In this document: piece by piece, positions 4,212 through 47,982 of the stretch
Layout: every line of letters starts with the position of its first letter
Position numbering within the stretch: the stretch's first letter is position 1
Source of the DNA: Candidatus Sumerlaeota bacterium
GTDB lineage: Bacteria; Sumerlaeota; Sumerlaeia; MWCT01; JAUWMI01
Assembly: GCA_030613245.1 (NCBI GenBank)
Contig: JAUWMI010000008.1
Location: 27,831-91,830, forward strand
Direction of reading: 5' to 3'
DNA: 64,000 bases
Notes under the pieces: generated by a model
What the model was told of the DNA's origin: nothing
Database searches by the model: none
Seen by the model: only the letters and a program-made list of their open reading frames with translations
Made by a program: the position numbers and the translations under genes

Positions 4212-4287
4212 AATTCAATCCCCATCAATAGACCGGACAGAACTATCGTTCCCTTGAACTAAAAACTGCCCATTTTCAGGAACTCTT

Positions 4288-4319: not shown

Positions 4320-4388
4320 TTAAACCCTTAAACCCGAATAATCGGGCACCACGAGCGCATTTATACTGACTCAGGGGCCAATTCCTGA

Positions 4389-5624: not shown

Positions 5625-5629
5625 GACCC

Positions 5630-7603: not shown

Positions 7604-7655
7604 TCACCCATTTCCAGATCTTGAAATCCTTAGTATCGAATTAAGCACCCTGCGT

Positions 7656-8741: not shown

Positions 8742-8816
8742 ATGCTCTCTCCCCTTACTTCTTTCACGATCGCATACTGGTAACCCGAATTTGATCGGTT
8801 ATCATCGCGTCCTATG

Positions 8817-10655
8817 CTACTCGATATCAGATTGCGTAATACGTAGGACTTCAGGAATCGTTGTAATCCCCAGGAGCACCTTCTGCCAGCCGTCCATCCG
8901 GAGAGTTTGCATTCCTTTGCCAACCGCGTAGGCCTTTATTTTTGTGGCAGACTCTGCCCGAATAACCATTTGCCGGGTTGCCGAATCCATAATGAATATT
9001 TCATGGATCGCAGTTCGGCCGCGGTAGCCGGTTCCGTTGCAGCGGTCGCAGCCACTGCCTTGAAAGAACTCGCGATCGCGATATTTCTCAGGATTATAGC
9101 CTATCTCTAGGATCTCTTCTGGGTGTGGGGTGTACGGCTTTTTGCAATGAGTACAAGTACGACGTATGAGGCGTTGGGCAATTACGGCCTGGATGCTAGA
9201 GGCTACCAGGAATGGCTTTATCCCCATATCCATGAGGCGGATCGTTGCACTCGCCGCATCATTCGTATGCAACGTGCTAAAGACCAGGTGGCCAGTCAAC
9301 GCTGCCCGGATGCCAATCTCAGCGGTTTCCAGGTCACGAATTTCGCCCACAAGGATAACGTCCGGCGATTGCCGCAGCATGCTGCGAAGCCCTTTGGTAA
9401 AGTCCAGCCCAATATCCTCGTTCACCTGCATCTGGTTGATGCCTTCAATCTGATACTCGACCGGATTCTCAATGGTTATGATTTTCGTCTCTGGATTGTT
9501 GATTGTACTCAGGGCCGAATACAGCGTAGTGGTTTTGCCGCTTCCAGTTGGACCAGTCATCAAAATAATACCGTTTGGCGTCTTGATCAACTCGCGAAAG
9601 ATCTTAATGTTATCCGGGAGAAACCCGACGTCCTCAAGGCCCATAATAACGGTGGTTTGATCCAAGATACGCATGACAATACTCTCACCATAGATCGCCG
9701 GGAGCGATGAGACACGCAGGTCTAACTTCTTATCCGGCATATTGAGCTTGATCCGGCCGTCTTGTGGGACACGCTTCTCCGCCAGATCGAGCCCGGCGAG
9801 CACCTTCAAGCGCGAGATAATGGCATTCTGCCAGCGCTTCGGAGGGGACGGAACTTCGTGTAGCATGCCGTCAACCCGGAACCGGATCACCACGCCATGG
9901 CGGGCAGGCTCAACGTGAATGTCACTGGCCCGGTCGTGCACCGCCTGCTTAAAAATCAAATCTACGAATTTAACCACTGGCGGCTGCTCAGCTTCCGAGA
10001 CATTCAGGTCAACCTCTTCATAGTCCTTATAGGGGCTCATCTCCTGATCAGCCTGATCGGTAAAACCTTCGTATAGCTCCGCCACCTCGTTGCCTTCATA
10101 GTAGCGCTTAATAGCCTTCTGGATATCTTCGTCTGACGCCACAACTCCGATGACCTTTTTGCCAAGAATCTTCTCCAGATCGTCCGTAGTCTGGATATTC
10201 AGAGGATCTGACAGAGCTACATGAATAGACTCATCGTCATAGCGAACGGGGAAAACCTGGTATTTCTGGGCGGTTTTTGAGTCAATCTGTTGTACTAGCT
10301 CCGGCGTAACCCGTAAATCCTGGAAGGAGATTTTCTCCATGCCCATCTCTTGCGCCAAGGCATCAAGAATATCAGATTCCCGGACAAGCCCCTGGGAGAT
10401 TAGACTTCGCTTCAAGCTCTGTGCACTCTCATCGCTATTGCGCACGACGTCGCTGATCATTTCTTCATTGATAAGACCTGCCTCTTCAAGAATAAGCCCT
10501 AGGGTGGGAGTGCTACTCTTGTACTTCTTGGCGAGTGTCCGCTTGTCGAAGAATGCTTTCTCTTCCTCGGTCGGTTTGCGAACCGGCTTCTTTGCTCTTT
10601 CCCGCTCGCCAATTTTAGGATTATCTTTTCTATCTGTTCCGGCCATGTCGCTCAC
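8817..10655 (-). CDS. pilB: PilB-like type IV pilus assembly ATPase with N-terminal MshEN-like domain
   Basis: 612 aa. Walker A GPTGSGKTTT. CTHCKKPY...CDRCNGTGY zinc module. N-terminus contains two 24-residue motifs (TLGLILEEAGLINEEMISDVVRNS; SLKRSLISQGLVRESDILDALAQE) separated by 5 residues, resembling the c-di-GMP-binding MshEN tandem motif. Confidence 0.85.
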   Translation of the reverse strand: MSDMAGTDRKDNPKIGERERAKKPVRKPTEEEKAFFDKRTLAKKYKSSTPTLGLILEEAGLINEEMISDVVRNSDESAQSLKRSLISQGLVRESDILDALAQEMGMEKISFQDLRVTPELVQQIDSKTAQKYQVFPVRYDDESIHVALSDPLNIQTTDDLEKILGKKVIGVVASDEDIQKAIKRYYEGNEVAELYEGFTDQADQEMSPYKDYEEVDLNVSEAEQPPVVKFVDLIFKQAVHDRASDIHVEPARHGVVIRFRVDGMLHEVPSPPKRWQNAIISRLKVLAGLDLAEKRVPQDGRIKLNMPDKKLDLRVSSLPAIYGESIVMRILDQTTVIMGLEDVGFLPDNIKIFRELIKTPNGIILMTGPTGSGKTTTLYSALSTINNPETKIITIENPVEYQIEGINQMQVNEDIGLDFTKGLRSMLRQSPDVILVGEIRDLETAEIGIRAALTGHLVFSTLHTNDAASATIRLMDMGIKPFLVASSIQAVIAQRLIRRTCTHCKKPYTPHPEEILEIGYNPEKYRDREFFQGSGCDRCNGTGYRGRTAIHEIFIMDSATRQMVIRAESATKIKAYAVGKGMQTLRMDGWQKVLLGITTIPEVLRITQSDIE

Positions 10656-17884: not shown

Positions 17885-20800
17885 TCAGGGTACGTTGAGA
17901 GATTCGACAGCGACGGAATTGAGCATCAACGCGCCGTTTGAAGCATCCGCGGGGTCAAAGTTCAAGATGTCAAATGCCGCGAGAATGCTGTCTGCTTCTG
18001 TGCCGACCAGCGATTGTGGAGGATAGAAATAGAGGTCGTAGGTACGCCCCGAAGGGATCGGGCTCATCTCCGCGCTGGTAACAGAACTAACGACCTTCAC
18101 TATGCTTGACTGAAAATCTTCACTTGATGTGCGTAACCGAAGCTGTGGCACCTGTTCCTGAACCGTAACGTCCGTGCTCACGGTAAATCGCAGCCGATAG
18201 AGTTTGCCTGCCTCTGCCTGCACCAATTCCGAAGGCCCACTCCAGAAGCCAAAGGTGTTCGTATTGTTCTGCGCTGTGAGCCAAAGAGCGCCACTGGCAA
18301 TAGTGCTCGTGGGCGGAGTGAAAAAGATCGGCGCAGAGCCAAATTGCCAGCTCTCAGAATCCGTGTCGAAGATCCACGTCTTTAGCAAAGTCGGCGTGTC
18401 CAACGTTTCCAGAGGAATCGCATCCACAACCACTCTATCCAGCATCACTGAGCCATACGCAGCATCTGAAGGGTCAAAATTCAGAATATCAAATGACAGG
18501 ATCAAATCATCTTGATCCTCTGGCTTTCCCAACGCGCTCTCTGGCGGGATAAAATACATCTCGTACGTCCGTCCATCCGGAGTCGGCGAATATGAACCAT
18601 CCCCCGTACTACTCACCACCAAAATATCCGCCTGTTGAAGATTCTGGCTATTCACGCGCAGCTGCATATGTGGCACCGCAAGAAGATCCGTAACGTCTGT
18701 TACAACTGTCCAGCTCGCCCGATACAAGCAATCCGCTATCACCGGCACAGCATCCAGCTCGCTCGTCCAGAAGCCATACGTATTGGTATTATCCTGCGCA
18801 GTGAGTATAATGTGCCCTGGCAGATAATAACATTCTGGTGGTGTGAAGTACCTGGAAAGTGTAACCGAAGTCCATCCCTCCTCAGTCAGCTCAAAATCAT
18901 AATCCTGCACTGAGAACGGACCGAGAAATTCATCTGCACCAATGTCAAAGTCCGAGCCATCGCCACGCGGTTCACTGGTGCCATCCATAAGTCGCGGATC
19001 GCCTTCAAAGTCCTCAGTCAAGCCATCAATATAGCCCCCCGCATCTATACAGGGCGAGCTAGGCAACAAATGAAAATCGCCATTCAGTGGGTCAACGAAT
19101 TGTGGATCAGAGGAGATATTACCTTCGCCGCCCCCCGCCAAATCCTGAATGCAAGAATAAGAAGGTTTGACGCAATGGTAAAGTTGCGCTCCTGAAGGGG
19201 CAATATTTTGCCAGATAATACAGTTTCTTATGGCACGGCTGCAGAATTCAAGCCCGCCGCCATAATCACTGGCCAAGTTGCCGTGAATAGTATTATTCTG
19301 GATACTAGCGTAGCACCCATAAAGCCCACCCCCTGTTCGAGCTGAATTGGCCAAGATTAAGTTGTTCTGGATGGTACCGTCGCACTCATGGAGCCCACCG
19401 CCACGATAACCACAGGAGTTGCGAGAGATCACATTATATTGAATGATGCCGTCACAGTCCGTAAGCCCGCCGCCATAGTCCTGGGCTGAATTGTCCGAGA
19501 TTATATTATTCTGAATCGTGCCGTCACAACCGTAAAGCCCACCGGCACGATTATGAGCCGAATTGCCGTAGATAGTATTGTTCTGTATGGTTCCGCTGCA
19601 ATAGTAGAGTCCGCCGCCACTCCAGGAAGCCGAATTGCCCGAGATAACATTATTCTCAATCGTGCCATTGCAATTATAGAGCCCGCCGCCTTGAAGAGCC
19701 GTGTTGTTCAAAATTTTGTTATTCTCGATGCTAGTAAGCGCTCCATTGCCACATATTCCTCCACCAAGGTATCCTGAGCCATTGCGAATGGTGAACCCTT
19801 TAATCACGCTTGTCTTATTTTCCGTCCCGTGCAATAGGATAACCGTAAACACTGCACCCCCTTCAATTATAGTATTACTAACAACGCCATCATCGGAGGG
19901 ATTAGTACTTTGCAGAATTAGATTCTTTCCAAGAAAATTGAGGTTCTCATGATAGGTCCCAGGTGACACAGTTGCTACTTCTGAGGGGAAAGCCAGGAAT
20001 ATACCCTGTTGAATGGATGCATATTCAGCACCTACGGATATTCCTGAAGGTGTATTGTAGAGAGCGGGGTCAGTTCCGCGAAGTATTTCTACACCATCTT
20101 TTAGACCGTCCCGATCGCTGTCTGAATTGCTAGGATCGCTATTGTAAACAGCTTCTTCGATATCCGCCAATAGGTCGCCATCAAAATCCAGGGAGCTACC
20201 ATACTCATCACTTCCAATATCAACTGAGTTTCCTGCTAATCGGCATCCCCCATCTATATCTGCAATATACTCACCGAAGAAGTAATACGTATTCCCGGCA
20301 TCAATACAGGGAGAACCGGACTGAAGATGATAATCTCCATTCCACGGGTCAACAAATTTGGGGTCATCTGATATGTTGCCCCTGCCCCCCTGGGTCCAAT
20401 CTTGAATGCATGAATAAAAAGGGGTGCTTGAGTCATAGACCTGACTGCCATCAGGAGCAGAGTTTCCCCAGATGATGCAGTTAATGATAAATCCCTTGCA
20501 ACGATCCAGGCCTCCGCCTCCATCCCCAGCGGAGTTTTCTATAATGGTATTGTTTTGAATGGTGTCATTGCAGTCATAGAGGCCGCCACCATGATTTCTG
20601 GCCCAATTCCCAGAAATGGTATTATTCCGGATAGTGCCACCGCACTTAGCGAGTCCGCCACCTGCACTGAATTCTTGCCCAATAGCCGAGTTGCCCGAGA
20701 TGACATTGTTCTGTATAGTCCCATCGCAATAGGAGAGTCCACCACCATAACCATTATAGCGCCCGCCGTCTGCAATATTGCGCGAGATAATATTGTTCTG

Positions 20801-22693
20801 AATAATGCCATCGCACCCACGCAGCCCGCCACCATAGGCGGCAGTATTACCAATGATTATATTATTTCTTATGATACCTGCGCAGCCAGCTAGTCCGCCG
20901 GCCAAGTTACCTGACACAGTATTTTTCTCAATGATGCCGTTGCATCGCGATACCCCGACGCTCTGGTTGTCCAAGATTTGGCTATTCCTTATTGCTAGCA
21001 GTGCGCCGTTGCCATGAATTCCGGCCCCCTGCAGTCCACCTCCGTTACGAATAGTTAGACCCTCAACTTCGCAGCGTTCATCTTCCGTGCCTTCAAAAAA
21101 TATCACAGAGAAACATCCGGCCCCATCGATTGTCGTAGAACTCACCATATCATCATCCAGCGGATCGGTACTCTGCAGCGTCAGATTTTTTCCTAGGAAA
21201 CGGAGATTTTCATAATATGTACCTGGTGACACGGTGATTACTTCCAAAGGAAAGGCCATAAATATTCCCTGCTGAATGATAGCATAGTGAGCAGGGATAA
21301 AGATTCCTGAAGGCCCATTATAAACTGTAGGATCGGTGCCCCGAAGCACCTCCACACCATCCTTTAAACCATCTAAATCAGTGTCGGTATTATCGGGATC
21401 GCTCCCTTGATTGAACTCATCTTCATCTGATAAAAGGTCACCATCACTGTCCGAGGAACTGGCGTATTCATCACTTCCCATGTCTAGTGAACTTCCTTCT
21501 ACCCGGCATTCTCCGTCTATATCTACCAGGTAATCTCCACAAAGATAATACGTATTCCCGGCATCGATACAAGGAGAGTCAGGCTGCAGATGAAAATTGC
21601 CATTATCCGGATCAACAAATCTCGGATCAGCTGAGATATTGCCTCTACCACCACCGATCCAATCCTGAATGCAGCTATAGAGTGGGGTGCTGCAATCAAA
21701 AAGCTGGCTCGCCTCGAAGCCTGAGTTTCCCCAGATGATACAATTAATAATAAATCCCGTGCAAGAGTCCAGCCCTGCGCCACGCCCCCCTCTATTGCCG
21801 GCGATGGTATTGCTTTGAATGGTACCATCGCACCCATAAAGTCCACCTCCAAAAGCATAAGCCTCATTGGAGCAAATAGCATTGTTCTGAATGTTACCGC
21901 TGCAATAGTAGAGTCCTCCGCCGATACCATAGGCCGCTACATTGCCTGAGATGATATTGTTCCGAATTGTTCCATTGCAATTTGAGAGGCCACCCCCATC
22001 ACGGCCAGAATTATTACCTGAGATCGTATTATTGCAGATGGTGCCGTCGCAACCATGGAGTCCGCCGCCTCCGCCAGCACGGTTGCCCGAGATATTGTTG
22101 TTTTCGATTCTTCCATCACAATCGTAGAGTCCGCCGCCTTGAGAGCCAGCACTGTTCCCTGAGATGCTGTTGTTTTTGATTGTTCCATCACAATCGTGGA
22201 GTCCTCCGCCAGAACCAATACCGGATTTATACCAGTAATAAGCACTATTTGCCGTAATATTACTATTCTGGATAGTTGCTCTGGTACCATTGCCATAGAT
22301 ACCGCCGCCTTCGTAATAAACACGACCATTGGTAATGGTAAAGCCGGAGAGAATACAGCTTGGAGATTCCGTGCCGGCAAAAGTAACCACGGTGTCCGTG
22401 CTTCTCCCATCAATGATGGTGCTGGCGACTATGGTTGGACTAGTGGGATCAGTCGAGCGCAGGATGATGTTTTTGCCGCCAAAGTAGATGTTCTCATAAT
22501 AAGTGCCAGGCGAGACGATGATTTCGTCACCGTCATTGGCGGCATCAATCGCCCCCTGAATTGTAGAATAATCACCAGGAACGGTAATCACCGCGGCATG
22601 GGATAGTAGGCAAAACGGAGAAATGAGAAAAAATAAAAAGAAAGCCAAGACCTTTAATCTACAAGTCAGGCTATTGGCGCCAATCCTTTTCAT
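17885..22693 (-). CDS. Giant secreted right-handed parallel beta-helix (pectate-lyase-fold) repeat protein with Ca-binding linkers and duplicated C-terminal domains
   Basis: 1602 aa. Signal peptide MKRIGANSLTCRLKVLAFFLFFLISPFCLLSHA. Three about 400-aa modules each starting VSPGTYYENL/VSPGTYHENL. Many PbH1-type repeats (GGGLYDCDGTIQNN, ISGNSA). Each module ends CIIWGNS...SCIQDW..GGRGNIS.DP.FVDP.NG.FHLQ..SPCIDAGN. Modules are linked by D-rich EF-hand/TSP3-like loops (DTDLDGLKDGVEVL). Two about 200-aa C-terminal repeats (FTPP...LTAQ[DN]NTNT[YF]GFW). Confidence 0.85.
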   Translation of the reverse strand: MKRIGANSLTCRLKVLAFFLFFLISPFCLLSHAAVITVPGDYSTIQGAIDAANDGDEIIVSPGTYYENIYFGGKNIILRSTDPTSPTIVASTIIDGRSTDTVVTFAGTESPSCILSGFTITNGRVYYEGGGIYGNGTRATIQNSNITANSAYYWYKSGIGSGGGLHDCDGTIKNNSISGNSAGSQGGGLYDCDGRIENNNISGNRAGGGGGLHGCDGTICNNTISGNNSGRDGGGLSNCNGTIRNNIISGNVAAYGIGGGLYYCSGNIQNNAICSNEAYAFGGGLYGCDGTIQSNTIAGNRGGRGAGLDSCTGFIINCIIWGNSGFEASQLFDCSTPLYSCIQDWIGGGRGNISADPRFVDPDNGNFHLQPDSPCIDAGNTYYLCGDYLVDIDGECRVEGSSLDMGSDEYASSSDSDGDLLSDEDEFNQGSDPDNTDTDLDGLKDGVEVLRGTDPTVYNGPSGIFIPAHYAIIQQGIFMAFPLEVITVSPGTYYENLRFLGKNLTLQSTDPLDDDMVSSTTIDGAGCFSVIFFEGTEDERCEVEGLTIRNGGGLQGAGIHGNGALLAIRNSQILDNQSVGVSRCNGIIEKNTVSGNLAGGLAGCAGIIRNNIIIGNTAAYGGGLRGCDGIIQNNIISRNIADGGRYNGYGGGLSYCDGTIQNNVISGNSAIGQEFSAGGGLAKCGGTIRNNTISGNWARNHGGGLYDCNDTIQNNTIIENSAGDGGGGLDRCKGFIINCIIWGNSAPDGSQVYDSSTPFYSCIQDWTQGGRGNISDDPKFVDPWNGDYHLQSGSPCIDAGNTYYFFGEYIADIDGGCRLAGNSVDIGSDEYGSSLDFDGDLLADIEEAVYNSDPSNSDSDRDGLKDGVEILRGTDPALYNTPSGISVGAEYASIQQGIFLAFPSEVATVSPGTYHENLNFLGKNLILQSTNPSDDGVVSNTIIEGGAVFTVILLHGTENKTSVIKGFTIRNGSGYLGGGICGNGALTSIENNKILNNTALQGGGLYNCNGTIENNVISGNSASWSGGGLYYCSGTIQNNTIYGNSAHNRAGGLYGCDGTIQNNIISDNSAQDYGGGLTDCDGIIQYNVISRNSCGYRGGGLHECDGTIQNNLILANSARTGGGLYGCYASIQNNTIHGNLASDYGGGLEFCSRAIRNCIIWQNIAPSGAQLYHCVKPSYSCIQDLAGGGEGNISSDPQFVDPLNGDFHLLPSSPCIDAGGYIDGLTEDFEGDPRLMDGTSEPRGDGSDFDIGADEFLGPFSVQDYDFELTEEGWTSVTLSRYFTPPECYYLPGHIILTAQDNTNTYGFWTSELDAVPVIADCLYRASWTVVTDVTDLLAVPHMQLRVNSQNLQQADILVVSSTGDGSYSPTPDGRTYEMYFIPPESALGKPEDQDDLILSFDILNFDPSDAAYGSVMLDRVVVDAIPLETLDTPTLLKTWIFDTDSESWQFGSAPIFFTPPTSTIASGALWLTAQNNTNTFGFWSGPSELVQAEAGKLYRLRFTVSTDVTVQEQVPQLRLRTSSEDFQSSIVKVVSSVTSAEMSPIPSGRTYDLYFYPPQSLVGTEADSILAAFDILNFDPADASNGALMLNSVAVESLNVP

Positions 22694-34603: not shown

Positions 34604-36763
34604 TCACAAGAGAAAAATCGTCTCCATCACCTCTTCGGCCGTGGTTATGCCGTCGTATATCTTCTTTATGCCGCTCTGCGCCAGGGTGGTCATTTTGTTA
34701 GCCATGGCCGCCTTCATCAGGGCCTCTTCCGATGCATTCTCCATCACCAGCCGTTTGATTGTTTCGTCCACGACAAGGATTTCAAAAATTCCTGTGCGAC
34801 CCCAATACCCGGTATTTAGACAGTGGTCGCACCCGCGACCACGATACATGCGTTTCTTTGAACGATCAGAGATGCCCAGGTCCTTAAGGATGCCTTTCGG
34901 CGGCGCGTATGAAATTTTGCACTTCGGGCAAGTCTTCTTAACCAGCCGCTGTGCTATGATAGCGATAAGTGCGCTGGACAGCATGTAGGCCTGAACGCCC
35001 ATATGAATCAGCGCCGGAATGGCACCAACCGAAGTGTTTGTGTGGAGAGTACTGAAGACCAGATGTCCGGTCAGTGCCGCGCGTATCGCAATATGCGCAG
35101 TCTCCTGATCGCGAATTTCTCCAACAAGTATGATGTCTGGATCCTGTCGCAGTGTCGAGCGCAGCAGCGTTGCAAAAGTGAGGTCAATATTGTAATCTAC
35201 CTGAACCTGATTAATACCCTCCAGCTCATACTCAACAGGATCTTCAATCGTCACGATGTTGCGTTTCTCGTCGTTTACAGCATTAAGAGCTGAATAAAGC
35301 GTTGACGTCTTGCCACTCCCTGTTGGTCCGCTCACCAGGATCATGCCGTAAGGTTTGCGAATGATCTGCTCTATCAGTGCCTGCTGATCTTTGTCTAATC
35401 CCAATTCAGACAGTCCCGTCAGCACCGTTGCCTCACTCAAAATACGAATCACAACCTTCTCGCCTAAATGCGTGGGGAGTGTGGAGACCCGAAAGTCGTA
35501 GTTCTTCTTGCCCACTTGCAAGAAGAAATGCCCGTCCTGTGGGCGCCGGCGTTCAGTGACGTTCATGTTCGCCAGCACTTTAATCCGCGAAATTACGGGG
35601 AGCTGCATCTCGAGTGGGATCGGCATGATGTTATGCAGGCTGCCGTCAATACGATATCGCACGCGCAAGGCTGATTCTTGTGGCTCGATGTGGATGTCGG
35701 TGGATCGCGTGGCAATGGCGTGCTCGATAACCGAGCTCACGAGCTGGACAGTCGAGCGATTGTCCACAAGGGTGTCAATTCCCTCGACTTTGATTTCGCG
35801 TGGCGTGGCAGGGGTCGCCGCTTCAGGCGCTTTTGGTGCACCCACTGCTCTGGCTTCTGCTTCTTTAAGGGAAGGTAATAGTATATTGATCTTCCGAATG
35901 ATTTCACTCTGAGGGGCAAAAATTGGATAGATGTTGTAACCGGTCAGCAACGAAAGGACATTAATGAGCGCCAGATTCAGCGGATCAGCTGTCACAATAG
36001 AGAGACTATTCTGTTTCTTGCTTATCGGCAGAATGAGCTGTTGGCGAATGAATTCTGTCGGTAAGAGCTCCAGCAGCTCCTCCCTCACAGTAATCTCACC
36101 CAGCTCAATGGAGGCGAAATAGAGTCCTTCGTCAACGGCCTTCAGCAGTGCATTCTGCTCAAGCAGGCCGTTGGCATTCAGGACATTCCGGAGTTGTTTC
36201 CCCTTGTCCTCGCTTTGCTCAACTGCAGCGTCCCAGTCAGTCCTGCTCACCAGGTTGTTGAATACCAGGATGTCCCTTGTCACACACAGGCGGTTCTTAC
36301 ACGATAATTGGCTGATCGGATTGGTAACAAGTTTGCTAAGGATTTCTGGTGTCAATAGCCCCTCGGCCACAAAGAGCTCATAGTCAGACGCGGTAATTTT
36401 CGGCCGGTCGCTGAAAAATGCTTTGATCCGTTCTGCTGGCCCCAGATGCTCATCAAGCAGCAGGGAACCAAGATCTTTCAGTTTGGTCTTGTTGGCCTTC
36501 AGGATATGGATGATCTGTCTGGTCGAAATATGGACAGCCTCGCTGAGTACTTTTTCAATTTCTTGGTCTTGCTTCCTGGCGAACGGTAACTTCGTTAAGA
36601 GGTCGCGATATGTCTGGAGCGATAGGGCGTCGGATTTCAGAATGGCACCCAGCTGTTTACCTTCACCGGGTCGTTTCTTGGCGACGTAGGTCTTCCACTG
36701 CGTCTCGTCTATGAGGCCGGCTTCTCGGAAGAGCAGAGCCAGTCGGGCAGAGGTGGTCTTCAT
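34604..36763 (-). CDS. PilB/GspE-family assembly ATPase with extended N-terminal region (second PilB-like)
   Basis: 719 aa. Walker A GPTGSGKTST. CPKCKISY...CDHCLNTGY zinc module. About 370-aa N-terminal region with a GspE_N-like domain and a degenerate MshEN-like tandem motif (RLALLFREAGLIDETQ ... QLGAILKSDALSLQTYRDLL). ATGA overlap with the upstream gene. Confidence 0.85.
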   Translation of the reverse strand: MKTTSARLALLFREAGLIDETQWKTYVAKKRPGEGKQLGAILKSDALSLQTYRDLLTKLPFARKQDQEIEKVLSEAVHISTRQIIHILKANKTKLKDLGSLLLDEHLGPAERIKAFFSDRPKITASDYELFVAEGLLTPEILSKLVTNPISQLSCKNRLCVTRDILVFNNLVSRTDWDAAVEQSEDKGKQLRNVLNANGLLEQNALLKAVDEGLYFASIELGEITVREELLELLPTEFIRQQLILPISKKQNSLSIVTADPLNLALINVLSLLTGYNIYPIFAPQSEIIRKINILLPSLKEAEARAVGAPKAPEAATPATPREIKVEGIDTLVDNRSTVQLVSSVIEHAIATRSTDIHIEPQESALRVRYRIDGSLHNIMPIPLEMQLPVISRIKVLANMNVTERRRPQDGHFFLQVGKKNYDFRVSTLPTHLGEKVVIRILSEATVLTGLSELGLDKDQQALIEQIIRKPYGMILVSGPTGSGKTSTLYSALNAVNDEKRNIVTIEDPVEYELEGINQVQVDYNIDLTFATLLRSTLRQDPDIILVGEIRDQETAHIAIRAALTGHLVFSTLHTNTSVGAIPALIHMGVQAYMLSSALIAIIAQRLVKKTCPKCKISYAPPKGILKDLGISDRSKKRMYRGRGCDHCLNTGYWGRTGIFEILVVDETIKRLVMENASEEALMKAAMANKMTTLAQSGIKKIYDGITTAEEVMETIFLL

Positions 36764-37275
36764 TTCTCTTCTTGCTGCTCCTCAATGATGGAGTATCTAG
36801 TTTCTTTCAGCACGATTGCCACTTTGCGGTTACCGCCACGATTTGCCAGCACGTGGCGCTCTTTGGCCAGGTGCTCTCCCAGGTACGGAACTTCGGCATG
36901 CAGCCTCAGCACAATATCGCCTTCCGCAAAATTGAGCGCCCCTTGGCGGTAGAGCTCTGCATCGGTATGCAGCGGTTCGATGACACCTGTACCTGTTCCG
37001 TATGGAAAGGTAATAGAAAATTGGGTTAGCACGCCTGTAGATTCTCCGGTCGAGTTGCGGAGCATTTGACTTTGAAGGGAATTCAATAAAGTGTCCAGCC
37101 GCGCTTCGGCTTCCTGAAGCGCCACAGCGCTGATTCCTGTGTTTGCGAGCGTGGCAACTCCTACCACCATTATGAAGAGCGTTGCCAGCACGCCCAGCGC
37201 AGCAACCAGGGCGAACCCGTGTTTCTTCAAAGTAAACGTAGCACCGATTTTGATTTTAGTTGCTCGGATTTGCAT
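36760..37275 (-). CDS. PilX/GspK-like pseudopilin-type protein (no Glu5)
   Basis: 171 aa. KKHG|FALVAALGVLATLFIMVV class-III-signal-like N-terminus lacking Glu5. Sits between the pilW-like and ATPase genes. Confidence 0.45.
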   Translation of the reverse strand: MQIRATKIKIGATFTLKKHGFALVAALGVLATLFIMVVGVATLANTGISAVALQEAEARLDTLLNSLQSQMLRNSTGESTGVLTQFSITFPYGTGTGVIEPLHTDAELYRQGALNFAEGDIVLRLHAEVPYLGEHLAKERHVLANRGGNRKVAIVLKETRYSIIEEQQEEK

Positions 37276-37284
37276 TGTCTTGTT

Positions 37285-37950
37285 CTAGAGTTGTTCCTTG
37301 CTCGATGGGAGAGCAAGAGATGTTGTAATTGTCACAGGTTCTACCCGGTCCGTAGCATCGCGAATAATGACCGTAATTTCGACCACTCGCGGAACTGCGC
37401 CCGGTTTGAGAGCAACGACCCATTGGGGATTCAGCATCTCAAAAGCGCTCGCGTATCGAAAGCGCACTTCGCTTTCTACGTCTCCCACGCCAAGACCAAG
37501 AACACCAAGAGCCTGCTGGCTAGTTTCGGTCTCTGGGGAGGGAGAAGCCACACTCTGCCCAAGTAGTGTGCTCTCCATCATCACACGGTTCAGTTGCGTC
37601 TTCGCATCCCGCCGGTTGGTAATCAGATACTGCAAGGGCTGGCTCTCCTTTGCCATATGCAGAGAACGAAATTGCATCTGGTTTTCAGCAAAGTGCGTAG
37701 CGCCAGTGGGCGCCGCTTGTGCCAGCTCACCACTAGGGAAAAACTGTTTAAGCGACTTCGCTATAGTGTTGGTGATGAGGCGTCCTTCTTGCCGCATGGT
37801 CGCTTTCAGAATGTTGGCATCAGTAGCGGCGGTGGTGCGTATCAATATTCCAAGGATCAGGCCAAAAATAATCAGCCCACCCGCAATTGCCACAATTAGC
37901 TCAATCAGCGTTATCCCGTTTTGTTGGCGTCTCGAGAGGTACTTGATCAT
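37285..37950 (-). CDS. PilW/GspJ-like minor pilin
   Basis: 221 aa. RRQQNG|ITLIELIVAIAGGLIIFGL canonical prepilin cleavage/methylation motif. Confidence 0.65.
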   Translation of the reverse strand: MIKYLSRRQQNGITLIELIVAIAGGLIIFGLILGILIRTTAATDANILKATMRQEGRLITNTIAKSLKQFFPSGELAQAAPTGATHFAENQMQFRSLHMAKESQPLQYLITNRRDAKTQLNRVMMESTLLGQSVASPSPETETSQQALGVLGLGVGDVESEVRFRYASAFEMLNPQWVVALKPGAVPRVVEITVIIRDATDRVEPVTITTSLALPSSKEQL

Positions 37951-37983
37951 CCGCTTGGTTCCGCTTGTAGCGCTCTCTATTTG

Positions 37984-38104
37984 TCTGGTAGCACAAGCAT
38001 CCTTTTATCTGGTAGCACAGGCATCCTTGCCTGTGCATAGCTGTAACAGGCTGGAAGCCTGTTCTACCATTAGCTGTAACAAGCAAGAAGCCTGTTCTAC
38101 CATT
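37984..38104. repeat. Intergenic tandem repeats (2 x 24 bp, 2 x 33 bp) with two perfect 8-bp-stem hairpins between pilV-like and pilW-like genes
   Basis: Seen directly. 37984-38007 and 38008-38031 (tctggtagcacaRgcatcctt..). 38039-38071 and 38072-38104 (agctgtaacaRgcWRgaagcctgttctaccatt). Hairpins CACAGGCA-tcct-TGCCTGTG (38016-38035) and AACAGGCT-gga-AGCCTGTT (38045-38063). The last repeat unit abuts the pilV-like stop codon. The motif CCAGATAA from the pilV 3' end recurs in the repeats. Confidence 0.85.
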
Positions 38105-38596
38105 TTATCTGGCCACGTTCTCAATCAGGACAATTTTATTCCCTATCGGCAACTCGCTAATGTGAGAATATTTATTCCGCCCGGTCGGAAGCCACCCGGC
38201 AGTCACTGTCATTTTGATTATGTTTTCATTTTGTGGATTCAGGGCAAGGTCCGCCTGCCACACTATTCGTGAGAAGAGACGCGTTGAGGGGTAAATATCA
38301 GGCAGGTATTGTGTGACGAAAGCAATGCTCTCAGGGTAGGAAACTGACTGGTCGGTCCTCTGCATCTGACGCAAGCGAATGTAGGAGGCCAGGTTTTCGT
38401 ACCCCGCGGCTTTTAACTCCTCGAGCTTCCCTTTGGCCACGTACATGGCAAGGGACTTGTAATCATTGCGTTCAGACTGTTTTTGTGCGTTGAGATAGAG
38501 GTCCAGAACCCCATAGATTCCAAACACCAGGACAACGAGGGCAATCATGACTTCAACTAGAGTAAAACCACGGGTACCGGAAAGTCGCAGATTCAT
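38105..38596 (-). CDS. PilV/GspI-like minor pilin
   Basis: 163 aa. SGTRG|FTLVEVMIALVVLVFGI canonical prepilin motif. Confidence 0.65.
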   Translation of the reverse strand: MNLRLSGTRGFTLVEVMIALVVLVFGIYGVLDLYLNAQKQSERNDYKSLAMYVAKGKLEELKAAGYENLASYIRLRQMQRTDQSVSYPESIAFVTQYLPDIYPSTRLFSRIVWQADLALNPQNENIIKMTVTAGWLPTGRNKYSHISELPIGNKIVLIENVAR

Positions 38597-43401: not shown

Positions 43402-45621
43402 ATGAGGCGAATAACGCTTATTGTGTTGGCGTTGATGGTTTGCTCAATTGCCTCGGCAGTTCCCATCAATCCCACGGTAGACTGGTATACGTCATACACT
43501 CCCTACCGTCACTACAACACGGCGTACAATCCAGCCACCGGCCACCTCATCACGAATAACAGATATTACAGCGCTTCCGAACAGGCATTAGGCTACGTCC
43601 CGGAACTCAGTATTTGGGATTCCACTGACGGCTCGTACATCAAAGGCCTTGCCTTTGCTGAAGGTAGCAGCCCATTCAGCCTCACATGCACGACTGACGG
43701 TGTAATCATGGGGGCCGATCTGAGCCTTGGTGAGGTTGTTTCGTGGTGGGCTGATGAGAACACCAGTCCGGGTGTGCTTAAGCCTGCTCCAGACCTTGAT
43801 TTCAGCCGTGGTTGTAATGTGCGTGGCACCAGCAGCAGTCCTACACTGTACATGGCTTGTGGTAGCAGTGACCTTGACAAGGCCCAGGTACTGCAGCTAG
43901 ACGCCACATTGACCACCTGGAGCGTGGTGAGTGTGATTCCCGCACCTTTCTGCAAGTCGGCGGTCGCTGTTAAAGATCAGAACACAGTCTTCGGCGGCGG
44001 GCCGTGGATGGAAGACGGCGACGCCAGTCCGACTCTGGGATTCCCGGATGTCCGTAGGAATATGAATCCTGGTAGCTGGGCGTACGCGAACTGGGTGCGT
44101 GATGACACGTTCAACCCGGAAGATGCTACAACAGGTGGATGGTCTTACACTCTATCTGCTGACTATGCTGACGGACTCTACTGGGCTCTCTTGTACTGGG
44201 ATGCACGAATTGTCGCCTACGAGGCAGTGCATGGTACGATCCTAGCCAGCATGCCCGTTGATACATGGGGGTACCTGTCATGGGGTAAGCCCGCAATTCT
44301 CTATTACGGCGGTCTTATTACCGAGGAAGGCGGAGCACCCAACAACACCGTTTTCTGGGGTTCCCGGCTGTATAATGCTGGCTATAATGGCGCGCTGGGC
44401 AAGATGACCTACACTGCGCCCCTGCCGGTGATCAACGAGGTCGACTACGACAATGCCGGCACGGACCTCACAGAATTCGTCGAGCTCTGGGGCGTGCCTG
44501 GCACCGACATTTCAGGCTACCAGCTGATAGGCCACACTGCTTCTAGTGGAGACGAATATGCCACTTACACGGTCCCTGCGAGCACGGTGATTCCTGCTGA
44601 CGGGTTCTACGTGATGGGTGCTGCCACTGTGGCTAATGTTGACCAGGTGATCGGCGTCACGAATCTCATTCAGAATGGTACGCCGGATGCCCTCGTGCTG
44701 AGGAACGCAGGTGGTACGATCATTGATGCGCTCGGCTACGAGATGGAGAATACTCCTGGCGCGTTGCCTTCATTCTCGTATGAAGGCACTGGTATGCGTG
44801 GTGGTGCCAACTTCGGTGCGCAGGTCTCTGTTGGAAGAAAGGCTGATGGCCGTGACTCCGATGATAACCAGGCAGACTTCGACATCATGAAGCCGTCACC
44901 TGGCGCAAAGAACCGGGGTTCGCTCTGGTCTGATGACATGCCGTACGTAGATCGCTTCCCGGGTGCGGGTCCTGAGCTGGCATGGTATGGCACCTTCGTT
45001 ACTCCAACCACGCTGGATCCAGCATCAGTTGGTGCACCTGATTCGCCTGAGGCTGCTATTACTGGCCTGATTCCGACTGCATCACCTGATTCAGTTGGTC
45101 GGGTAGACGATCCGTCTGGTGGTGGCAACGCGGTCATTCTCGGTGATCACAGCGTTGGCAGTGCTAACATCAACATCCAGGGCTGGGCCTATATCGGTGT
45201 TGATGGCGAGTCGATTGCCTTGTTCGTCCGTGGTCTTGGCGATGCCGCATGGCAGAGCAGCAGTTCAGACTATGAGAATTGCTATGCCATTCAGTACTTC
45301 GATGATGAAACCACAAATGTTGTGCAGGCGATTAAGCTGCAGGCTGGGACCAAGACTGTCTTTGCACAGTCAGACTACGTTGGCTCGCCGGCATGGCATC
45401 ATCTGCGCATCTGGGCCAACGGCTCGACCGTGGCGACGTATCTAGACAGTGCCAAGTTGTCTGAGGACACTGATAGCGACATCGCTAGCGGGCCTGTCGG
45501 TTTTGGCTACAGAGAGGTACACACTGGAGCTCCTATTAACGGCATGATAGTAGACAGCGTTATCATTGATAAGAACTTCGGTGATGCTGTGACCACTGTC
45601 GCAGATTGGAACCTCTTCTGA
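43402..45621 (+). CDS. Secreted protein with lamin-tail (LTD) domain and C-terminal LamG/concanavalin-like region
   Basis: Signal peptide MRRITLIVLALMVCSIASA. Strong RBS AAAGGAGGtatttaaATG. LTD motif INEVDYDNAGTDLTEFVELWGVPGTDISGYQL. 739 aa. Confidence 0.75.
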   Translation: MRRITLIVLALMVCSIASAVPINPTVDWYTSYTPYRHYNTAYNPATGHLITNNRYYSASEQALGYVPELSIWDSTDGSYIKGLAFAEGSSPFSLTCTTDGVIMGADLSLGEVVSWWADENTSPGVLKPAPDLDFSRGCNVRGTSSSPTLYMACGSSDLDKAQVLQLDATLTTWSVVSVIPAPFCKSAVAVKDQNTVFGGGPWMEDGDASPTLGFPDVRRNMNPGSWAYANWVRDDTFNPEDATTGGWSYTLSADYADGLYWALLYWDARIVAYEAVHGTILASMPVDTWGYLSWGKPAILYYGGLITEEGGAPNNTVFWGSRLYNAGYNGALGKMTYTAPLPVINEVDYDNAGTDLTEFVELWGVPGTDISGYQLIGHTASSGDEYATYTVPASTVIPADGFYVMGAATVANVDQVIGVTNLIQNGTPDALVLRNAGGTIIDALGYEMENTPGALPSFSYEGTGMRGGANFGAQVSVGRKADGRDSDDNQADFDIMKPSPGAKNRGSLWSDDMPYVDRFPGAGPELAWYGTFVTPTTLDPASVGAPDSPEAAITGLIPTASPDSVGRVDDPSGGGNAVILGDHSVGSANINIQGWAYIGVDGESIALFVRGLGDAAWQSSSSDYENCYAIQYFDDETTNVVQAIKLQAGTKTVFAQSDYVGSPAWHHLRIWANGSTVATYLDSAKLSEDTDSDIASGPVGFGYREVHTGAPINGMIVDSVIIDKNFGDAVTTVADWNLF

Positions 45622-45649
45622 CGCTCACTGCCTAGCAGAGTGATTCTGA

Positions 45650-45687
45650 GGGGTAAATAAGGTAACCTTATTTACCCCTTTTTTTTT
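45650..45687 (+). terminator. Rho-independent terminator (13-bp perfect stem, 3-nt loop, T9)
   Basis: GGGGTAAATAAGG-taa-CCTTATTTACCCC followed by TTTTTTTTT, 29 nt after the LTD gene stop. Confidence 0.8.
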
Positions 45688-45700
45688 GACTCCATCATCT

Positions 45701-45788
45701 TAAACTGCTAAACTGCTAAACTGCTAAACTGCTGAATTGCTCCATTGCTAAACTGCTAAACTGTTAAACTGCTAAATTGCCCCACTGC
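45701..45788. repeat. Left array of 11 degenerate 8-bp tandem repeats (unit TAAACTGC)
   Basis: Seen directly: taaactgc x4, tgaattgc, tccattgc, taaactgc, taaactgt, taaactgc, taaattgc, cccactgc. Ends 2 nt before the ATG of the four-helix-bundle gene. Confidence 0.9.
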
Positions 45789-45790
45789 TA

Positions 45791-46165
45791 ATGAAGAAAT
45801 ACCTTGAATTGAAAGATCTTAGTGCTTATAGAATAGCCTTTGATCTGTCAAATTATATATGGGCTATTGTAATTAAGTGGAACTATTTTGCAAAGGATAC
45901 CGTAGGAAGGCAATTAGTGAGAGCGGTGGATTCCATTTCTGCCAATATTGCAGAAGGCTTTGGCCGGTACTTTAAAAAAGACAAGATTAACTTCTATCGT
46001 TACAGCTATGGTTCAATTGAAGAATCAATTGATTGGATTGAGAAGGCGTATAAAAGAGGTTTATTGAAGGAAGGAGAGTACAGACATATTTCCAGCGAAT
46101 TAAATAAACTGCCAAAGGAAATACACTCTTTAATCAAATTTACCAATAGTCGTTTAACAAAATAG
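45791..46165 (+). CDS. Four-helix-bundle protein of the 23S rRNA intervening-sequence protein family (TIGR02436/PF05635-like)
   Basis: 124 aa. Motif RAVDSISANIAEGFGRY matches the family signature (..SIpANIAEGfgR). Conspicuously AT-rich (about 35% GC) relative to its neighbours. Confidence 0.75.
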   Translation: MKKYLELKDLSAYRIAFDLSNYIWAIVIKWNYFAKDTVGRQLVRAVDSISANIAEGFGRYFKKDKINFYRYSYGSIEESIDWIEKAYKRGLLKEGEYRHISSELNKLPKEIHSLIKFTNSRLTK

Positions 46166-46277
46166 CCATGTAGCAATTTAGCAGTTTGGCAGTTTGGCAG
46201 TTTAGCAGTTTAGCCGTTTAGCCGTTTAGCAATTTAGCCATGTAGCAATTTAACAATTTAACAATGTATCAATTTAA
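46166..46277. repeat. Right array of 14 degenerate 8-bp tandem repeats (unit CAGTTTAG, reverse complement of the left-array unit)
   Basis: Seen directly: ccatgtag, caatttag, cagtttgg x2, cagtttag x2, ccgtttag x2, caatttag, ccatgtag, caatttaa x2, caatgtat, caatttaa. Begins at the nucleotide after the stop codon. Ends 13 nt before the ATG of the surA-like gene. Confidence 0.9.
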
Positions 46278-46290
46278 TGGAGGTTTGTTT

Positions 46291-47982
46291 ATGACAACGC
46301 GGATAAGGTGTATCTTGATCATCGCTATAATCTGTACGATGGTAAGTGTCGGGGTTGCGTTCGGTGGGGCACCAATGGCTACATACTCTGGCGGGGTCGT
46401 TACTGCCGACGACCTGCGCTACTATGATAGCTTGCACAGGATGCAGACCCGCCAGTACGATGCCCGGACTGATCCACGCAGCGTGCTCGATGATATTGTC
46501 GCCGAGCGACTGCTTGCTGGGAAGGCTCGCAAACTGCATTTAGAGCAGGAGCCAGAATTTCAGGCAGAGGCAAAGAAAATTGAGGAAGACTCGCTGGCAA
46601 TGAGCTTGCGAGCCCAGGTCTACGAACCTGTGAGCGTATCAAAGGAAGAGATCGAAAAAGTACACTGGGAGAGGTCCATAGATGATTATTTTCGTGAGCC
46701 CACGCGTAAGGTGCGCTACATCTTTGTGGAATGCGGACAAAATCCCACGGAAGCAAAAAAGGCTGAAGCGAAGAAGAAGGCCGATGAGCTGCGCGTGCGT
46801 GCCCAGCGCGGGGAAGACTTTGCTGAGCTTGCACGCAAGTACTCTGATGCTAATAGTGCTGTAAGAGGAGGCGACATCGGATATATTGAACGCGGGAAAT
46901 TCCAGTGGGAATTCCGACGGGTCGTCTGGTCGATCCCGCTCTGGGAGATCAGCGAGCCAGTACTCACAAAGTATGGCTATTGCATCATTCGCGTGGAGGA
47001 TGAAACAGGCCCTTCAGCCATGCCATTGGAGGAAGTTGAGGATAGCATTCGGTCTTCTCTCAAGAGTAAGAAGCGAGGCGATGCCATGTTTCATTTCCGG
47101 AGTGGGGTTTACAGTGAAGGTATATACAAGCAGCATCTGGAGCCTTTACAGAAAGAGAATCCCTCTGCATCTGATGTGCTGGTTACCATTGGGGATTTTC
47201 AGTATACCTATGGCGATTTTAAGAAGAGGCTGGAAGAGGAGAATCAGGATATTACGCAAATGCTTCCGGAGGACCGGGAGGAATGGCTCAATAATGTGAT
47301 GGATGAGTTTTACTTTACCCAGGTAGCAGCGGCAAAGGGGGTTCAGGCTACGCCGCGCTATAAGGCGTTTATCGAGTTCCAGAAAGATGCTAAACTTACC
47401 ACCCGGTATCTGGAAAAGAAGCTGGAAGATGCAACACCGTCGAATCGCGAGTTAAAAAGGTTCTATGATAGTAACCCGAAGATGTTTGAATACCTGATCC
47501 GGCGCCATCTGAAACTAATCTTAGTTAAAGCCGATCTGCCAGAGAAAGCCAACCGTGCGCAACGCCATTATGCATTCCAGGCTGCGAAGAAGAAGATCCA
47601 GACTGTGGTTGACAAGCTCAAGCAGGGTGAATCGTTCGAGACGCTGGCTGACCGCTATGATGAAACGGCAAACCACAAGCCAGGCGGCGATATCGGATGG
47701 GTTCAGGAGCCCACAGCGCCGTATGTTGATGTGACGGCTCGCAAGATAGCTGAGGGAGATGTGAGTGACCCTGTTGAGTTCAGCCGGGGCTACGTTATGG
47801 TCAAGGTGGAGAAGATCAAGATACCAAAGTTTGGTGAGGTACGTGATAAAGTGCTGAAGCAATGGACAAAGTCGAAGCGTCGCGAGCTCAACGCCCGACT
47901 GCGCCAGGAGGCGCTACGCGAGGCAAAGTTTAAAATCAACGAAAAGGGTTTGGCAGCTTATCTCAAGACGCACAAGGAGTAG
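46291..47982 (+). CDS. Periplasmic SurA/PrsA-like chaperone with two parvulin-type peptidyl-prolyl isomerase domains
   Basis: Start MTTRIRCILIIAIICTMVSVGVAFG (signal) with GGAGG 7 nt upstream. Two PpiC blocks (ARKYSDANSAVRGGDIGYIERG; ADRYDETANHKPGGDIGWVQE). Confidence 0.75.
   Translation: MTTRIRCILIIAIICTMVSVGVAFGGAPMATYSGGVVTADDLRYYDSLHRMQTRQYDARTDPRSVLDDIVAERLLAGKARKLHLEQEPEFQAEAKKIEEDSLAMSLRAQVYEPVSVSKEEIEKVHWERSIDDYFREPTRKVRYIFVECGQNPTEAKKAEAKKKADELRVRAQRGEDFAELARKYSDANSAVRGGDIGYIERGKFQWEFRRVVWSIPLWEISEPVLTKYGYCIIRVEDETGPSAMPLEEVEDSIRSSLKSKKRGDAMFHFRSGVYSEGIYKQHLEPLQKENPSASDVLVTIGDFQYTYGDFKKRLEEENQDITQMLPEDREEWLNNVMDEFYFTQVAAAKGVQATPRYKAFIEFQKDAKLTTRYLEKKLEDATPSNRELKRFYDSNPKMFEYLIRRHLKLILVKADLPEKANRAQRHYAFQAAKKKIQTVVDKLKQGESFETLADRYDETANHKPGGDIGWVQEPTAPYVDVTARKIAEGDVSDPVEFSRGYVMVKVEKIKIPKFGEVRDKVLKQWTKSKRRELNARLRQEALREAKFKINEKGLAAYLKTHKE

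Follow-up and report, generated by a model that had tools for sequence, protein, structure and literature searches.

We analysed a 64,000-nucleotide stretch of the genome of a Candidatus Sumerlaeota bacterium (contig JAUWMI010000008.1, positions 27,831 to 91,830 of the forward strand; hereafter the window). It carries a gene for a four-helix-bundle protein of family PF05635 between two inverted arrays of a tandemly repeated octamer. This repeat-bracketed gene, which we refer to as the cassette, is confirmed as an observation and is unrelated to chance. It is also not unique to the window: the same architecture turns up in other members of the family and in different phyla, and the cassette is an expanded instance of it. 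By analogy with the intervening sequences (IVSs) of bacterial 23S rRNA, the best explanation of the cassette would be an IVS-type stem, with the open reading frame (ORF) in its loop, that is cut by RNase III; we give this explanation a probability of roughly 0.55. The rRNA IVSs of bacteria, with their conserved ORF, were already known in the early 1990s but still lack, to our knowledge, an accepted origin or function.

Arms, reading frame, and boundaries of the cassette

The cassette occupies the whole gap between the intrinsic terminator of the upstream gene, which codes for a protein with a Lamin Tail Domain (LTD; 43402 to 45621), and the ribosome-binding site (RBS) of the next gene. The terminator (45648 to 45680, plus strand) consists of a 15-bp stem, a 3-nt loop, and a T-run. 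It is the fixed left boundary of the site and belongs to the host flank, outside the cassette. The fixed right boundary, also host flank, is the RBS and start codon (46279 to 46293, plus strand; GGAGG at 46279 to 46283, ATG at 46291) of a gene for a double-parvulin protein of the SurA/PrsA type, which matches the Pfam Rotamase family at 126 bits. A strong terminator before the cassette and the RBS of a surA-like gene after it had both been reported in a preliminary description of this locus, and both were found again. The terminator is kept in three orthologous loci (L081, L088, and L093), where the array starts approximately 10 to 20 nt 3' of it, and the right junction, caatttaaYggaggtttgtttATG, is common to L081, L088, and L097.

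The upstream arm (45701 to 45788, plus strand) was delimited with Tandem Repeats Finder (TRF) and by a census of its units. It holds 11 tandem 8-nt units, of which six read exactly TAAACTGC; the variants are TGAATTGC, TCCATTGC, TAAACTGT, TAAATTGC, and CCCACTGC. TRF called the array at 45701 to 45791 (period 8, 11.4 copies, consensus TAAACTGC, 79% matches) and also detected a higher-order repeat of period 40 within it. The last unit ends at 45788, 2 nt 5' of the ATG at 45791, so the 11 units that were first described as ending 2 nt before a 124-amino-acid ORF are borne out. This ORF (45791 to 46165, plus strand), supported by profile searches and a structural model, encodes the four-helix-bundle protein (PF05635/TIGR02436; Avd-like fold).

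The downstream arm (46166 to 46277, plus strand), delimited in the same two ways, holds 14 tandem 8-nt units of the reverse-complement type: CAGTTTAG, CAGTTTGG, CAATTTAG, CCGTTTAG, and CCATGTAG twice each, CAATTTAA three times, and CAATGTAT once. TRF placed this array at 46163 to 46276 (period 8, 14.2 copies, consensus TAGCAATT, i.e., CAATTTAG). The count of 14 units given in the preliminary description therefore stands. Its wording of an exact reverse-complement unit does not: two of the 14 units read exactly CAGTTTAG, the remainder are 1 to 3 bases off, and the consensus differs by one base. The two arrays are thus reverse complements at the level of their consensus, one base apart, and not unit by unit. 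Similarly, whole units do run from 46166, just after the stop codon as first stated, and the array called by TRF begins three bases earlier, overlapping the TAG (46163 to 46165), so that the stop codon is at once the start of the downstream array.

The arms pair over 91 nt with 79% complementarity (pair I1). When the RNA of positions 45640 to 46300 was folded, arm-arm pairing appeared in both the minimum free energy (MFE) and the centroid structures (-206.5 kcal/mol, z = -7.2). A search for a pattern of two consecutive units, allowing up to 3 mismatches, returned 17 matches in the 64-kb window, with 0.4 expected by chance; 16 of the 17 lie in the two arrays, so the repeat is specific to this site within the window. 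Rfam reported no family at the cassette region, and the window holds a single tRNA and no rRNA. Accordingly, the cassette does not lie within a 23S rRNA helix (25 or 45), and its flanking genes are protein coding. A gene in the loop of a potential stem outside rRNA, as initially proposed, is what these results describe, and the arms supply the complementary termini that enclose the insert of an IVS. No Shine-Dalgarno sequence separates the array from the ATG of the cassette ORF (…TTGCCCCACTGCTAATG, 45775 to 45793), and the start codon abuts the predicted stem. By contrast, the next gene has a canonical GGAGG-N7-ATG.

The encoded protein and its resemblance to Avd

The ORF product matched PF05635 (23S_rRNA_IVP) at 82.6 bits (cutoff, 33.8; profile positions 1 to 105 of 106) and TIGR02436 (four helix bundle protein) at 86.2 bits (cutoff, 24). 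It contains the signature RAVDSISANIAEGFGRY, in agreement with the family assignment made at first sight of the sequence. The family motif has been given as GxxRxxxSxxxNxxE (PMC3936711). In the cassette protein it takes the form R44-AVD-S48-ISA-N52-IA-E55, with the leading glycine five residues before the arginine and not three; D47, S48, N52, and E55 are invariant among 26 homologues. The AlphaFold2 model of the monomer (pLDDT, 77.5) has four helices, at residues 11 to 27, 37 to 58, 76 to 88, and 94 to 122. With this model, Foldseek retrieved as best matches Xcc0516 (2gsc; TM score, 0.72 to 0.82) and BT_0352 of the 'S23 ribosomal protein family' (2rld; TM score, 0.65 to 0.80), together with bAvd (4dwl; probability 0.99; TM score, 0.65/0.74), an accessory protein of diversity-generating retroelements (DGRs). 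A phmmer search against PDB sequences found 2rld_A at an E value of 0.0025. The crystal structures 2gsc, 2rld, and 4dwl are homopentameric toroids.

Among 3087 database homologues, the best 120 were 68 to 100% identical to the cassette protein and bore source names from Omnitrophota to Curtissbacteria and other Patescibacteria. The closest named homologues, at 79 to 80% identity, came from metagenome-assembled genomes of Omnitrophota. The PADLOC defence models gave only a spurious Cas12k match (12.8 bits) to the cassette protein, and the PHROGs phage families gave none. On these grounds, we rejected membership of a defence system or of a phage family.

PF05635 is treated as an Avd-like family and is the commonest such family beside DGR reverse transcriptases (PMC10053308). 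The likeness of the model to bAvd therefore raises the reading of the gene as the Avd accessory protein of a DGR, with which the cassette also shares, in a formal sense, the layout of a cargo between paired flanks. The window protein, however, matches PF05635 and not the bAvd model. The larger ORFs between approximately 37 and 54 kb of the window, scanned against Pfam, include no reverse transcriptase; their domains are LTD, rotamase, VWA, amidohydrolase, PCMT, beta-lactamase-family, semialdehyde dehydrogenase, and a pilin-type methylation motif, and two ORFs had no match. Nor did we find a template/variable-repeat pair: the sole direct repeats of at least 40 nt between 36000 and 56000 are the two octamer arrays. 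Unlike a DGR, the cassette comes without a reverse transcriptase, a template/variable repeat, or a target gene, and it stands alone in unrelated operons, with neighbours that differ completely between loci. As neither a reverse transcriptase nor a template/variable-repeat pair lies nearby, the DGR reading is effectively refuted for this locus, and we consider its chances very slight.

Recurrence of the design in the subfamily

A scan of species-representative genomes yielded 80 loci whose product is 57 to 70% identical to the window protein. They come from Candidate Phyla Radiation (CPR) lineages, Bacteroidota, Ignavibacteria/Melioribacteraceae, Chlorobiota, Planctomycetota, Gammaproteobacteria, and Bdellovibrionales. 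In all, 84 subfamily loci from about ten phyla were compared. TRF analysis of the flanks showed that period-8 arrays adjoin the gene in most loci: 139 arrays of period 8, 16, or 24 fell in the 24 kb that lie within 150 nt of the gene, compared with 75 in the remaining 480 kb. Likewise, the lag-8 self-identity of the 100-nt flanks was 0.44, compared with 0.27 in controls. By a measure independent of TRF, applied to the 84 loci, arrays of at least 24 nt accompany 97% of the genes upstream and 81% downstream, as against 5% of control positions. Their median length is 40 nt upstream and 32 nt downstream.

The two arms of a locus are related by complementarity. ATTGT is found upstream in 68 of the 84 loci and downstream in 10, whereas ACAAT is found upstream in 8 and downstream in 63. 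The arms of the same locus had 8.8 reverse-complement 6-mers in common, compared with 2.7 direct 6-mers and with 5.1 reverse-complement 6-mers for arms taken from different loci (both p ~1e-9). The predicted duplex was also more stable for own arms (-37.0 kcal/mol) than for cross-locus pairs (-29.6 kcal/mol; p = 3.6e-6). The number of in-phase units peaks at 3 to 4 across loci. The idea of one repeat unit per subunit of the pentamer (5 x 8 = 40 nt) was therefore not supported, as the peak does not fall at 5. The array units hold stop codons that close two to three reading frames on either side of the ORF.

A full-text search, which left most subscription-journal papers outside its reach, found no published account of inverted tandem-repeat arms shared by the family, nor of cassettes of this kind outside rRNA. 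The protein family itself is already known, as are rRNA IVSs with RNase III-cleaved stems and scattered genomic genes annotated 'four helix bundle protein'. In the literature, the family is described as common in genomes and, in the form of Avd, as essential to reverse transcription in DGRs. The suggestion that a discrete repeat-bounded cassette outside rRNA had gone undescribed thus agrees with our search. The cassette is no one-off, since the design recurs across phyla.

Distant family members with unrelated units

We inspected eight distant genes whose membership of PF05635 was confirmed at 72 to 132 bits. In six of the eight, the design recurs but is built from unrelated units (period 7 in most), which are again complementary between the arms. 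On Nostoc and Geminocystis plasmids (L090 and L091), GGGAAAA upstream is answered by TTTTCCC downstream. The other pairs are RARACGA and TCGTYTT (L030), ATGGAAR and TCCATYT (L018), GCGAGAGGC and GCCTCTCGC (L031), and CAGTAAA and CTGTTTA (L098), the last of which has arms that pair in the MFE fold. No arrays were found beside the PF05635 gene in the remaining two, L089 and L092. Conservation therefore concerns the design, in which the upstream tandem unit is matched by its complement downstream, and not the sequence of the unit; the covariation is at the scale of whole arms. L030 and L031 also gave weak, sub-threshold matches to the bAvd model, PF22296.

This comparison bears on the possibility that the arrays are an expression or regulatory spacer, acting in cis on the ORF or on the downstream gene, with slippage giving phase-variable expression. 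The upstream unit of the subfamily reads TGnTAAAYT, which resembles an extended -10 element, and the purine-rich units found elsewhere resemble Shine-Dalgarno sequences. In the window, a promoter-like TTGACT-17-TAAACT with TG upstream makes use of the first array units. The strong variation in copy number between close alleles, described below, and the stop codons in the arrays would suit a regulatory role as well. However, such a role does not account for the constant reverse complementarity of the downstream to the upstream array when the units themselves are unrelated. Moreover, the -10-like reading cannot be applied to units such as GGGAAAA, GAAACGA, and ATGGAAG, and L081, L088, and L093 do not retain the putative -35 element. 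We therefore regard a regulatory role of the arrays as improbable.

Inheritance and array length at the locus

The rotamase has few orthologues and hence belongs to a rare lineage. The cassette or its remnants were present at six loci in related genomes (L081, L088, L093, L095, L096, and L097). Intact copies, in the gene order of the window, are found in L081 and L088: LTD gene, terminator, array, ORF, array, RBS, and rotamase. The downstream junction of the window recurs in L097. Two loci, L095 and L096, are 3' remnants made up of the 3' half of the ORF and the downstream array, and L093 is a 5' remnant, in which the terminator, the upstream array, and some 33 codons are followed by a Y1 transposase gene, flanked by repetitive extragenic palindromic (REP) sequences, in place of the rest. 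The transposase of L093 (690 to 1380) is a 189-amino-acid protein of the Y1 type (IS200-like, of the REP-associated tyrosine transposase [RAYT] type; PF01797, 32.1 bits). It is flanked by three copies of the REP-like palindrome GTAGGGGCAGGTTTnAAACCTGCCC, and similar palindromes lie upstream of the rotamase gene in L094.

The arrays differ in length between these loci. The window has 11 units upstream and 14 downstream, L088 has about 19 and 18, and L081 has about 46 and at least 60, which gives the latter arms of approximately 370 to at least 500 nt. A second lineage shows a difference of exactly 16 nt (two units) between L083, on the one hand, and L082 and L084, on the other. These differences agree with the expectation, voiced when the locus was first described, that the arrays would be prone to slipped-strand changes in copy number.

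The coding sequence is far more constant. Among the window, L081, and L088, the nonsynonymous substitution rate (dN) of the cassette ORF was 0.013 to 0.020 and the synonymous rate (dS) 0.13 to 0.26, giving a dN/dS of approximately 0.05 to 0.15. As judged by these ratios, the cassette protein is under purifying selection. The dS of the neighbouring genes (0.23 to 0.98) is comparable to that of the cassette. Since orthologous loci keep the cassette or its remnants and its dS resembles that of its neighbours, the comparison identifies the cassette here as an old, vertically inherited resident, with arrays that are quick to change length and with occasional loss. A recent lateral replacement was not supported, as the 97% identity of the cassette protein compared with 76% for the rotamase reflects dN and not dS.

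The preliminary description had also taken the low GC content of the ORF as a sign of foreign origin. The contrast itself is real, with 34.1% GC in the ORF and 52.5% in the flanks, close to the 35% and 50 to 55% first given. It is, however, a property of the family: the ORF is lower in GC than its flanks in 98% of 83 loci (means, 31% and 40.5%), and low GC is therefore no marker of recent import. Together with the occupied orthologous loci and the neighbour-like dS, this led us to reject a recent foreign origin.

The genes on either side of the cassette are fast evolving. When the window is compared with L081, the LTD protein (43402 to 45621) is 54% identical (dN, 0.41) and the rotamase (46291 to 47982) 76.5% identical (dN, 0.135), and the next gene downstream is 93% identical. 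This pattern suggests diversifying or relaxed selection on the products of the flanking genes, which may be surface or periplasmic proteins.

An empty version of this site was not obtained: a metagenome scan with the rotamase and a scan with a conserved DNA pattern of the terminator were both blank. In L094 there is no array upstream of the rotamase, and its contig ends 277 nt upstream, before the LTD gene. No naive empty site came to light from which to define an insertion junction or a target duplication. Assemblies tend to break at tandem arrays. Three contigs (L095, L096, and L097) stop inside the cassette remnant or array next to the rotamase gene, or a short way upstream of it, and a run of N lies inside the long array of L081 (6535 to 6633). 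Such arrays probably fragment assemblies, and cassettes may be under-represented or truncated in metagenome data. These breaks are also what could be said for an alternative in which the arrays have nothing to do with the gene and are either simple-sequence repeats that arose by chance or an artefact of assembly. That explanation is refuted by the excess of matches in the window (17 found, 0.4 expected, 16 of them in the two arrays) and by recurrence of the same architecture beside the gene in independent assemblies from many phyla and sources, isolate genomes included; it retains virtually no credibility.

Genomic setting and possible reoccupation of a spacer

The cassette is co-directional with its upstream neighbour in 75 of 83 loci, with its downstream neighbour in 74 of 81, and with both in 65 of 78. 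The median spacers on its two sides measure 54 and 46 nt and are essentially filled by the arrays. The neighbouring genes are entirely different from locus to locus. Relatives at 84 to 86% identity lie in a radical-SAM/ScmC cluster and in a type II secretion/pilus cluster; the arms travel with the gene, because these close relatives in other clusters bear arms of the same TTAAAYTG unit. Previous reports have described PF05635 genes within cas operons, one of them in the cmr3-cmr2 interval (PMC3936711), and at a number of positions in CPR 16S and 23S rRNA genes (PMC11270868). The gene was near-absent from plasmids (3 of 72,556 records), phage records (0), and viral contigs (one distant match); by these scans, carriage by plasmids or phages is essentially nil.

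One junction, between lptB and GH3, is found in four states in different species of Pontibacter. P. humidus carries a cassette of the window's subfamily (L074, 3947 to 4442). Pontibacter sp. 13R65 carries a pseudogenised cassette of the P. humidus type, with an internal stop codon (L100/L101; L100, 3233 to 3718). P. ruber has a PF05635 cassette with different arms and without BLASTP-detectable similarity to that of P. humidus (L098, 3233 to 3764). Finally, Pontibacter sp. 172403-2 has no gene and a 28-nt spacer (L099, 3233 to 3260) made of approximately 3.5 octamers of the downstream-arm type (CAAATTAA CCATTTAG CCATCCAT CAATT). This spacer may have arisen by deletion of the gene and one arm; alternatively, cassettes may be drawn to spacers that resemble arrays.

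In addition, inverted pairs of 7- to 8-nt arrays without an ORF fill spacers between co-directional genes. Four of six such pairs fold significantly (L040, 4621 to 4727, z = -6.6; L006, 668 to 774, z = -4.3; L023, 641 to 734, z = -4.1; L046, 1 to 90, z = -3.1). The other two do not (L085, 54 to 167, z = -1.0; L004, 2370 to 2469, z = -1.9). These pairs may be gene-less derivatives of the cassette.

Both observations speak for the main rival to an RNA-level explanation, namely, a mobile hairpin element that acts as DNA. Here, the inverted arrays would be terminal inverted repeats or iterated binding sites, extruded as a cruciform or a single-strand hairpin. The pentamer would be a mobility factor working with a host enzyme or one supplied in trans (a recombinase or a reverse transcriptase), the ORF-less pairs would be nonautonomous derivatives, and array-bearing spacers would be landing sites. 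The four pairs that fold, the occupation of one Pontibacter junction by two dissimilar cassettes, each with its own arms, and the array-like remnant in the 'empty' allele all suit such an element. So do the strand symmetry of the complementarity and the role of Avd as an obligatory cofactor of a reverse transcriptase. In addition, homologues are 70 to 97% identical across matches named as different phyla, which argues for horizontal spread.

Against this, the cassette protein has no catalytic domain. No recombinase or reverse transcriptase occurs among the Pfam-scanned ORFs between approximately 37 and 54 kb of the window, and none lies beside the cassettes among the called genes of L081 to L088 and L093 to L101, save for the inserted Y1 transposase of L093. 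The near-absence of the gene from plasmids, phages, and viral contigs, its vertical inheritance at this locus with no sign of recent replacement, and the lack of any observed insertion event or naive empty site also count against mobility. Overall, we hold it to be the less probable explanation, at perhaps one chance in four.

The cassette resembles the pairs formed by REP sequences and RAYTs, and by insertion sequences (ISs) and miniature inverted-repeat transposable elements (MITEs), in being intergenic and palindromic, in lying between co-directional genes, in occurring with and without an ORF, and in the evidence for repeated occupancy of one spacer. It differs from them in having no Y1 or DDE transposase and in arms that are arrays of 7- to 8-nt units rather than a unique palindrome; in addition, no target-site duplication or transposition event was observed for it. 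It is distinct from REP/Y1 elements, because one of these was inserted into, and destroyed, the cassette of L093.

Proposed processing of the arm duplex by RNase III

We return to the explanation that we favour, an IVS-type stem processed by RNase III. The cassette would be transcribed with, or next to, the host genes, and its arms would fold into a long duplex tolerant of register, with the ORF in the loop, as in ORF-bearing 23S rRNA IVSs. This duplex would be a substrate for RNase III, and cleavage would cut the cassette mRNA free from the host messages on both sides, whereby insertion inside transcription units could be tolerated. Arms made of tandem repeats could pair in many registers, and slippage could rebuild or resize them with complementarity kept. 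The sense orientation, the tight packing, and the covariation of the arms fit such processing, which we argue from the analogy with rRNA IVSs. Avd forms a positively charged pentamer and binds an RNA stem-loop. The template RNA of DGRs is itself bracketed by a duplex between distal upstream and downstream sequences (bioRxiv 10.1101/2023.10.23.563531). Because of these properties of Avd, it is plausible that the presumably pentameric cassette protein binds the duplex of its own arms.

The closest known systems are the ORF-bearing IVSs of 23S rRNA (Leptospira and Coxiella), which likewise carry a PF05635-family ORF between complementary, stem-forming termini. In the IVS of Coxiella burnetii, three to four tandem heptamers (GACAGAT), variable in number between strains, lie directly upstream of the ATG of S23p; RNase III cuts the stem at the first repeat, and the Shine-Dalgarno sequence is poor or absent (PMC4990558). 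The window cassette likewise has copy-variable tandem repeats directly upstream of its ATG. Unlike the 23S rRNA IVSs, it lies between the genes of an LTD-domain protein and a parvulin and not in an rRNA gene, and its cleavage by RNase III is predicted by analogy. Its arms consist entirely of tandem octamers on both sides, over 91 to 114 nt, whereas the Coxiella IVS has a 28-bp stem. Also, the Coxiella ORF is reportedly decaying, and the window protein is under purifying selection.

Intercistronic RNase III sites are a feature of phage T7 early mRNA and of rRNA operons, in which a duplex is cut to yield separate RNAs with defined ends. The same function, by a duplex in a polycistronic transcript, is predicted for the cassette. 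The T7 and rRNA-operon sites are local hairpins or long-range 16S/23S stems; in the cassette, by contrast, the paired arrays enclose the protein gene of the element itself.

Several results weigh against processing by RNase III. Typical arms hold approximately 3 to 5 AT-rich units and have a modest predicted stability, with -37.0 kcal/mol for the duplex of own arms compared with -31.2 kcal/mol for random, GC-richer pairs of coding segments (loci of 57 to 70% identity). The arms carry no G-U signature on the sense strand (sense, -37.0 kcal/mol; antisense, -37.7 kcal/mol; p = 0.45), and complementarity could therefore equally be kept at the DNA level. Cotranscription with the upstream gene is doubtful, because a strong terminator precedes the cassette, and no convincing conserved promoter was found for the cassette itself. 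Although no Shine-Dalgarno sequence precedes the ORF and its ATG lies right at the stem, its protein is under purifying selection. Beyond the window's subfamily, the generality of the design is drawn from a small sample of eight distant examples, two of which (L089 and L092) are arrayless.

We advance a broader proposal tentatively, as something we consider rather unlikely. PF05635 cassettes might be a distinct, phylum-spanning kind of mobile hairpin element, with autonomous forms that carry the gene for an Avd-like pentamer between inverted tandem-repeat arms and nonautonomous forms reduced to the two arms. Once bound to the arm duplex, the protein would act in the manner of Avd and bring in, in trans, a reverse transcriptase or another host enzyme for copying and insertion into transcribed spacers with matching arrays, and the ORF-bearing 23S rRNA IVSs would be the special case of an element that landed in rRNA.

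Other features of the window

The window has an unusual density of genes for type II secretion or type IV pilus-like machinery and for LTD-domain proteins. Three genes for T2SSE-type ATPases, a T2SSF gene, a gene for a T2SSK-like protein with an LTD of its own, and a pseudopilin-like gene lie at 72 to 10655 and 34604 to 38596. On the minus strand, tandem 72-nt repeats (70 to 86% matches) at 19488 to 19690 and 22073 to 22210 fall in an ORF for a 1602-amino-acid protein (17885 to 22693), where they presumably encode a repeated module of 24 residues. Two adjoining tandem duplications (24 nt x2 and 33 nt x2) at 37980 to 38104 separate two minus-strand ORFs, one of which (38105 to 38596) has a pilin-type N-terminal methylation motif.

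Implications

If the genes of this family should prove in general to lie between inverted arrays of a short tandem repeat, this would link the genomic genes annotated 'four helix bundle protein' and the rRNA IVSs as one kind of element. The duplex of the repeat arms would become a specific candidate for the nucleic acid ligand of the protein. Such packaging would also account for the presence of these genes amid conserved operons and for the breaks of metagenomic contigs beside them. Cultured carriers, such as Pontibacter, Mucilaginibacter, and Solitalea, would then be systems in which RNase III processing, binding of the protein to the arms, and mobility could be tested. A design shared across many phyla would offer a concrete handle on the nature of these long-unexplained elements.

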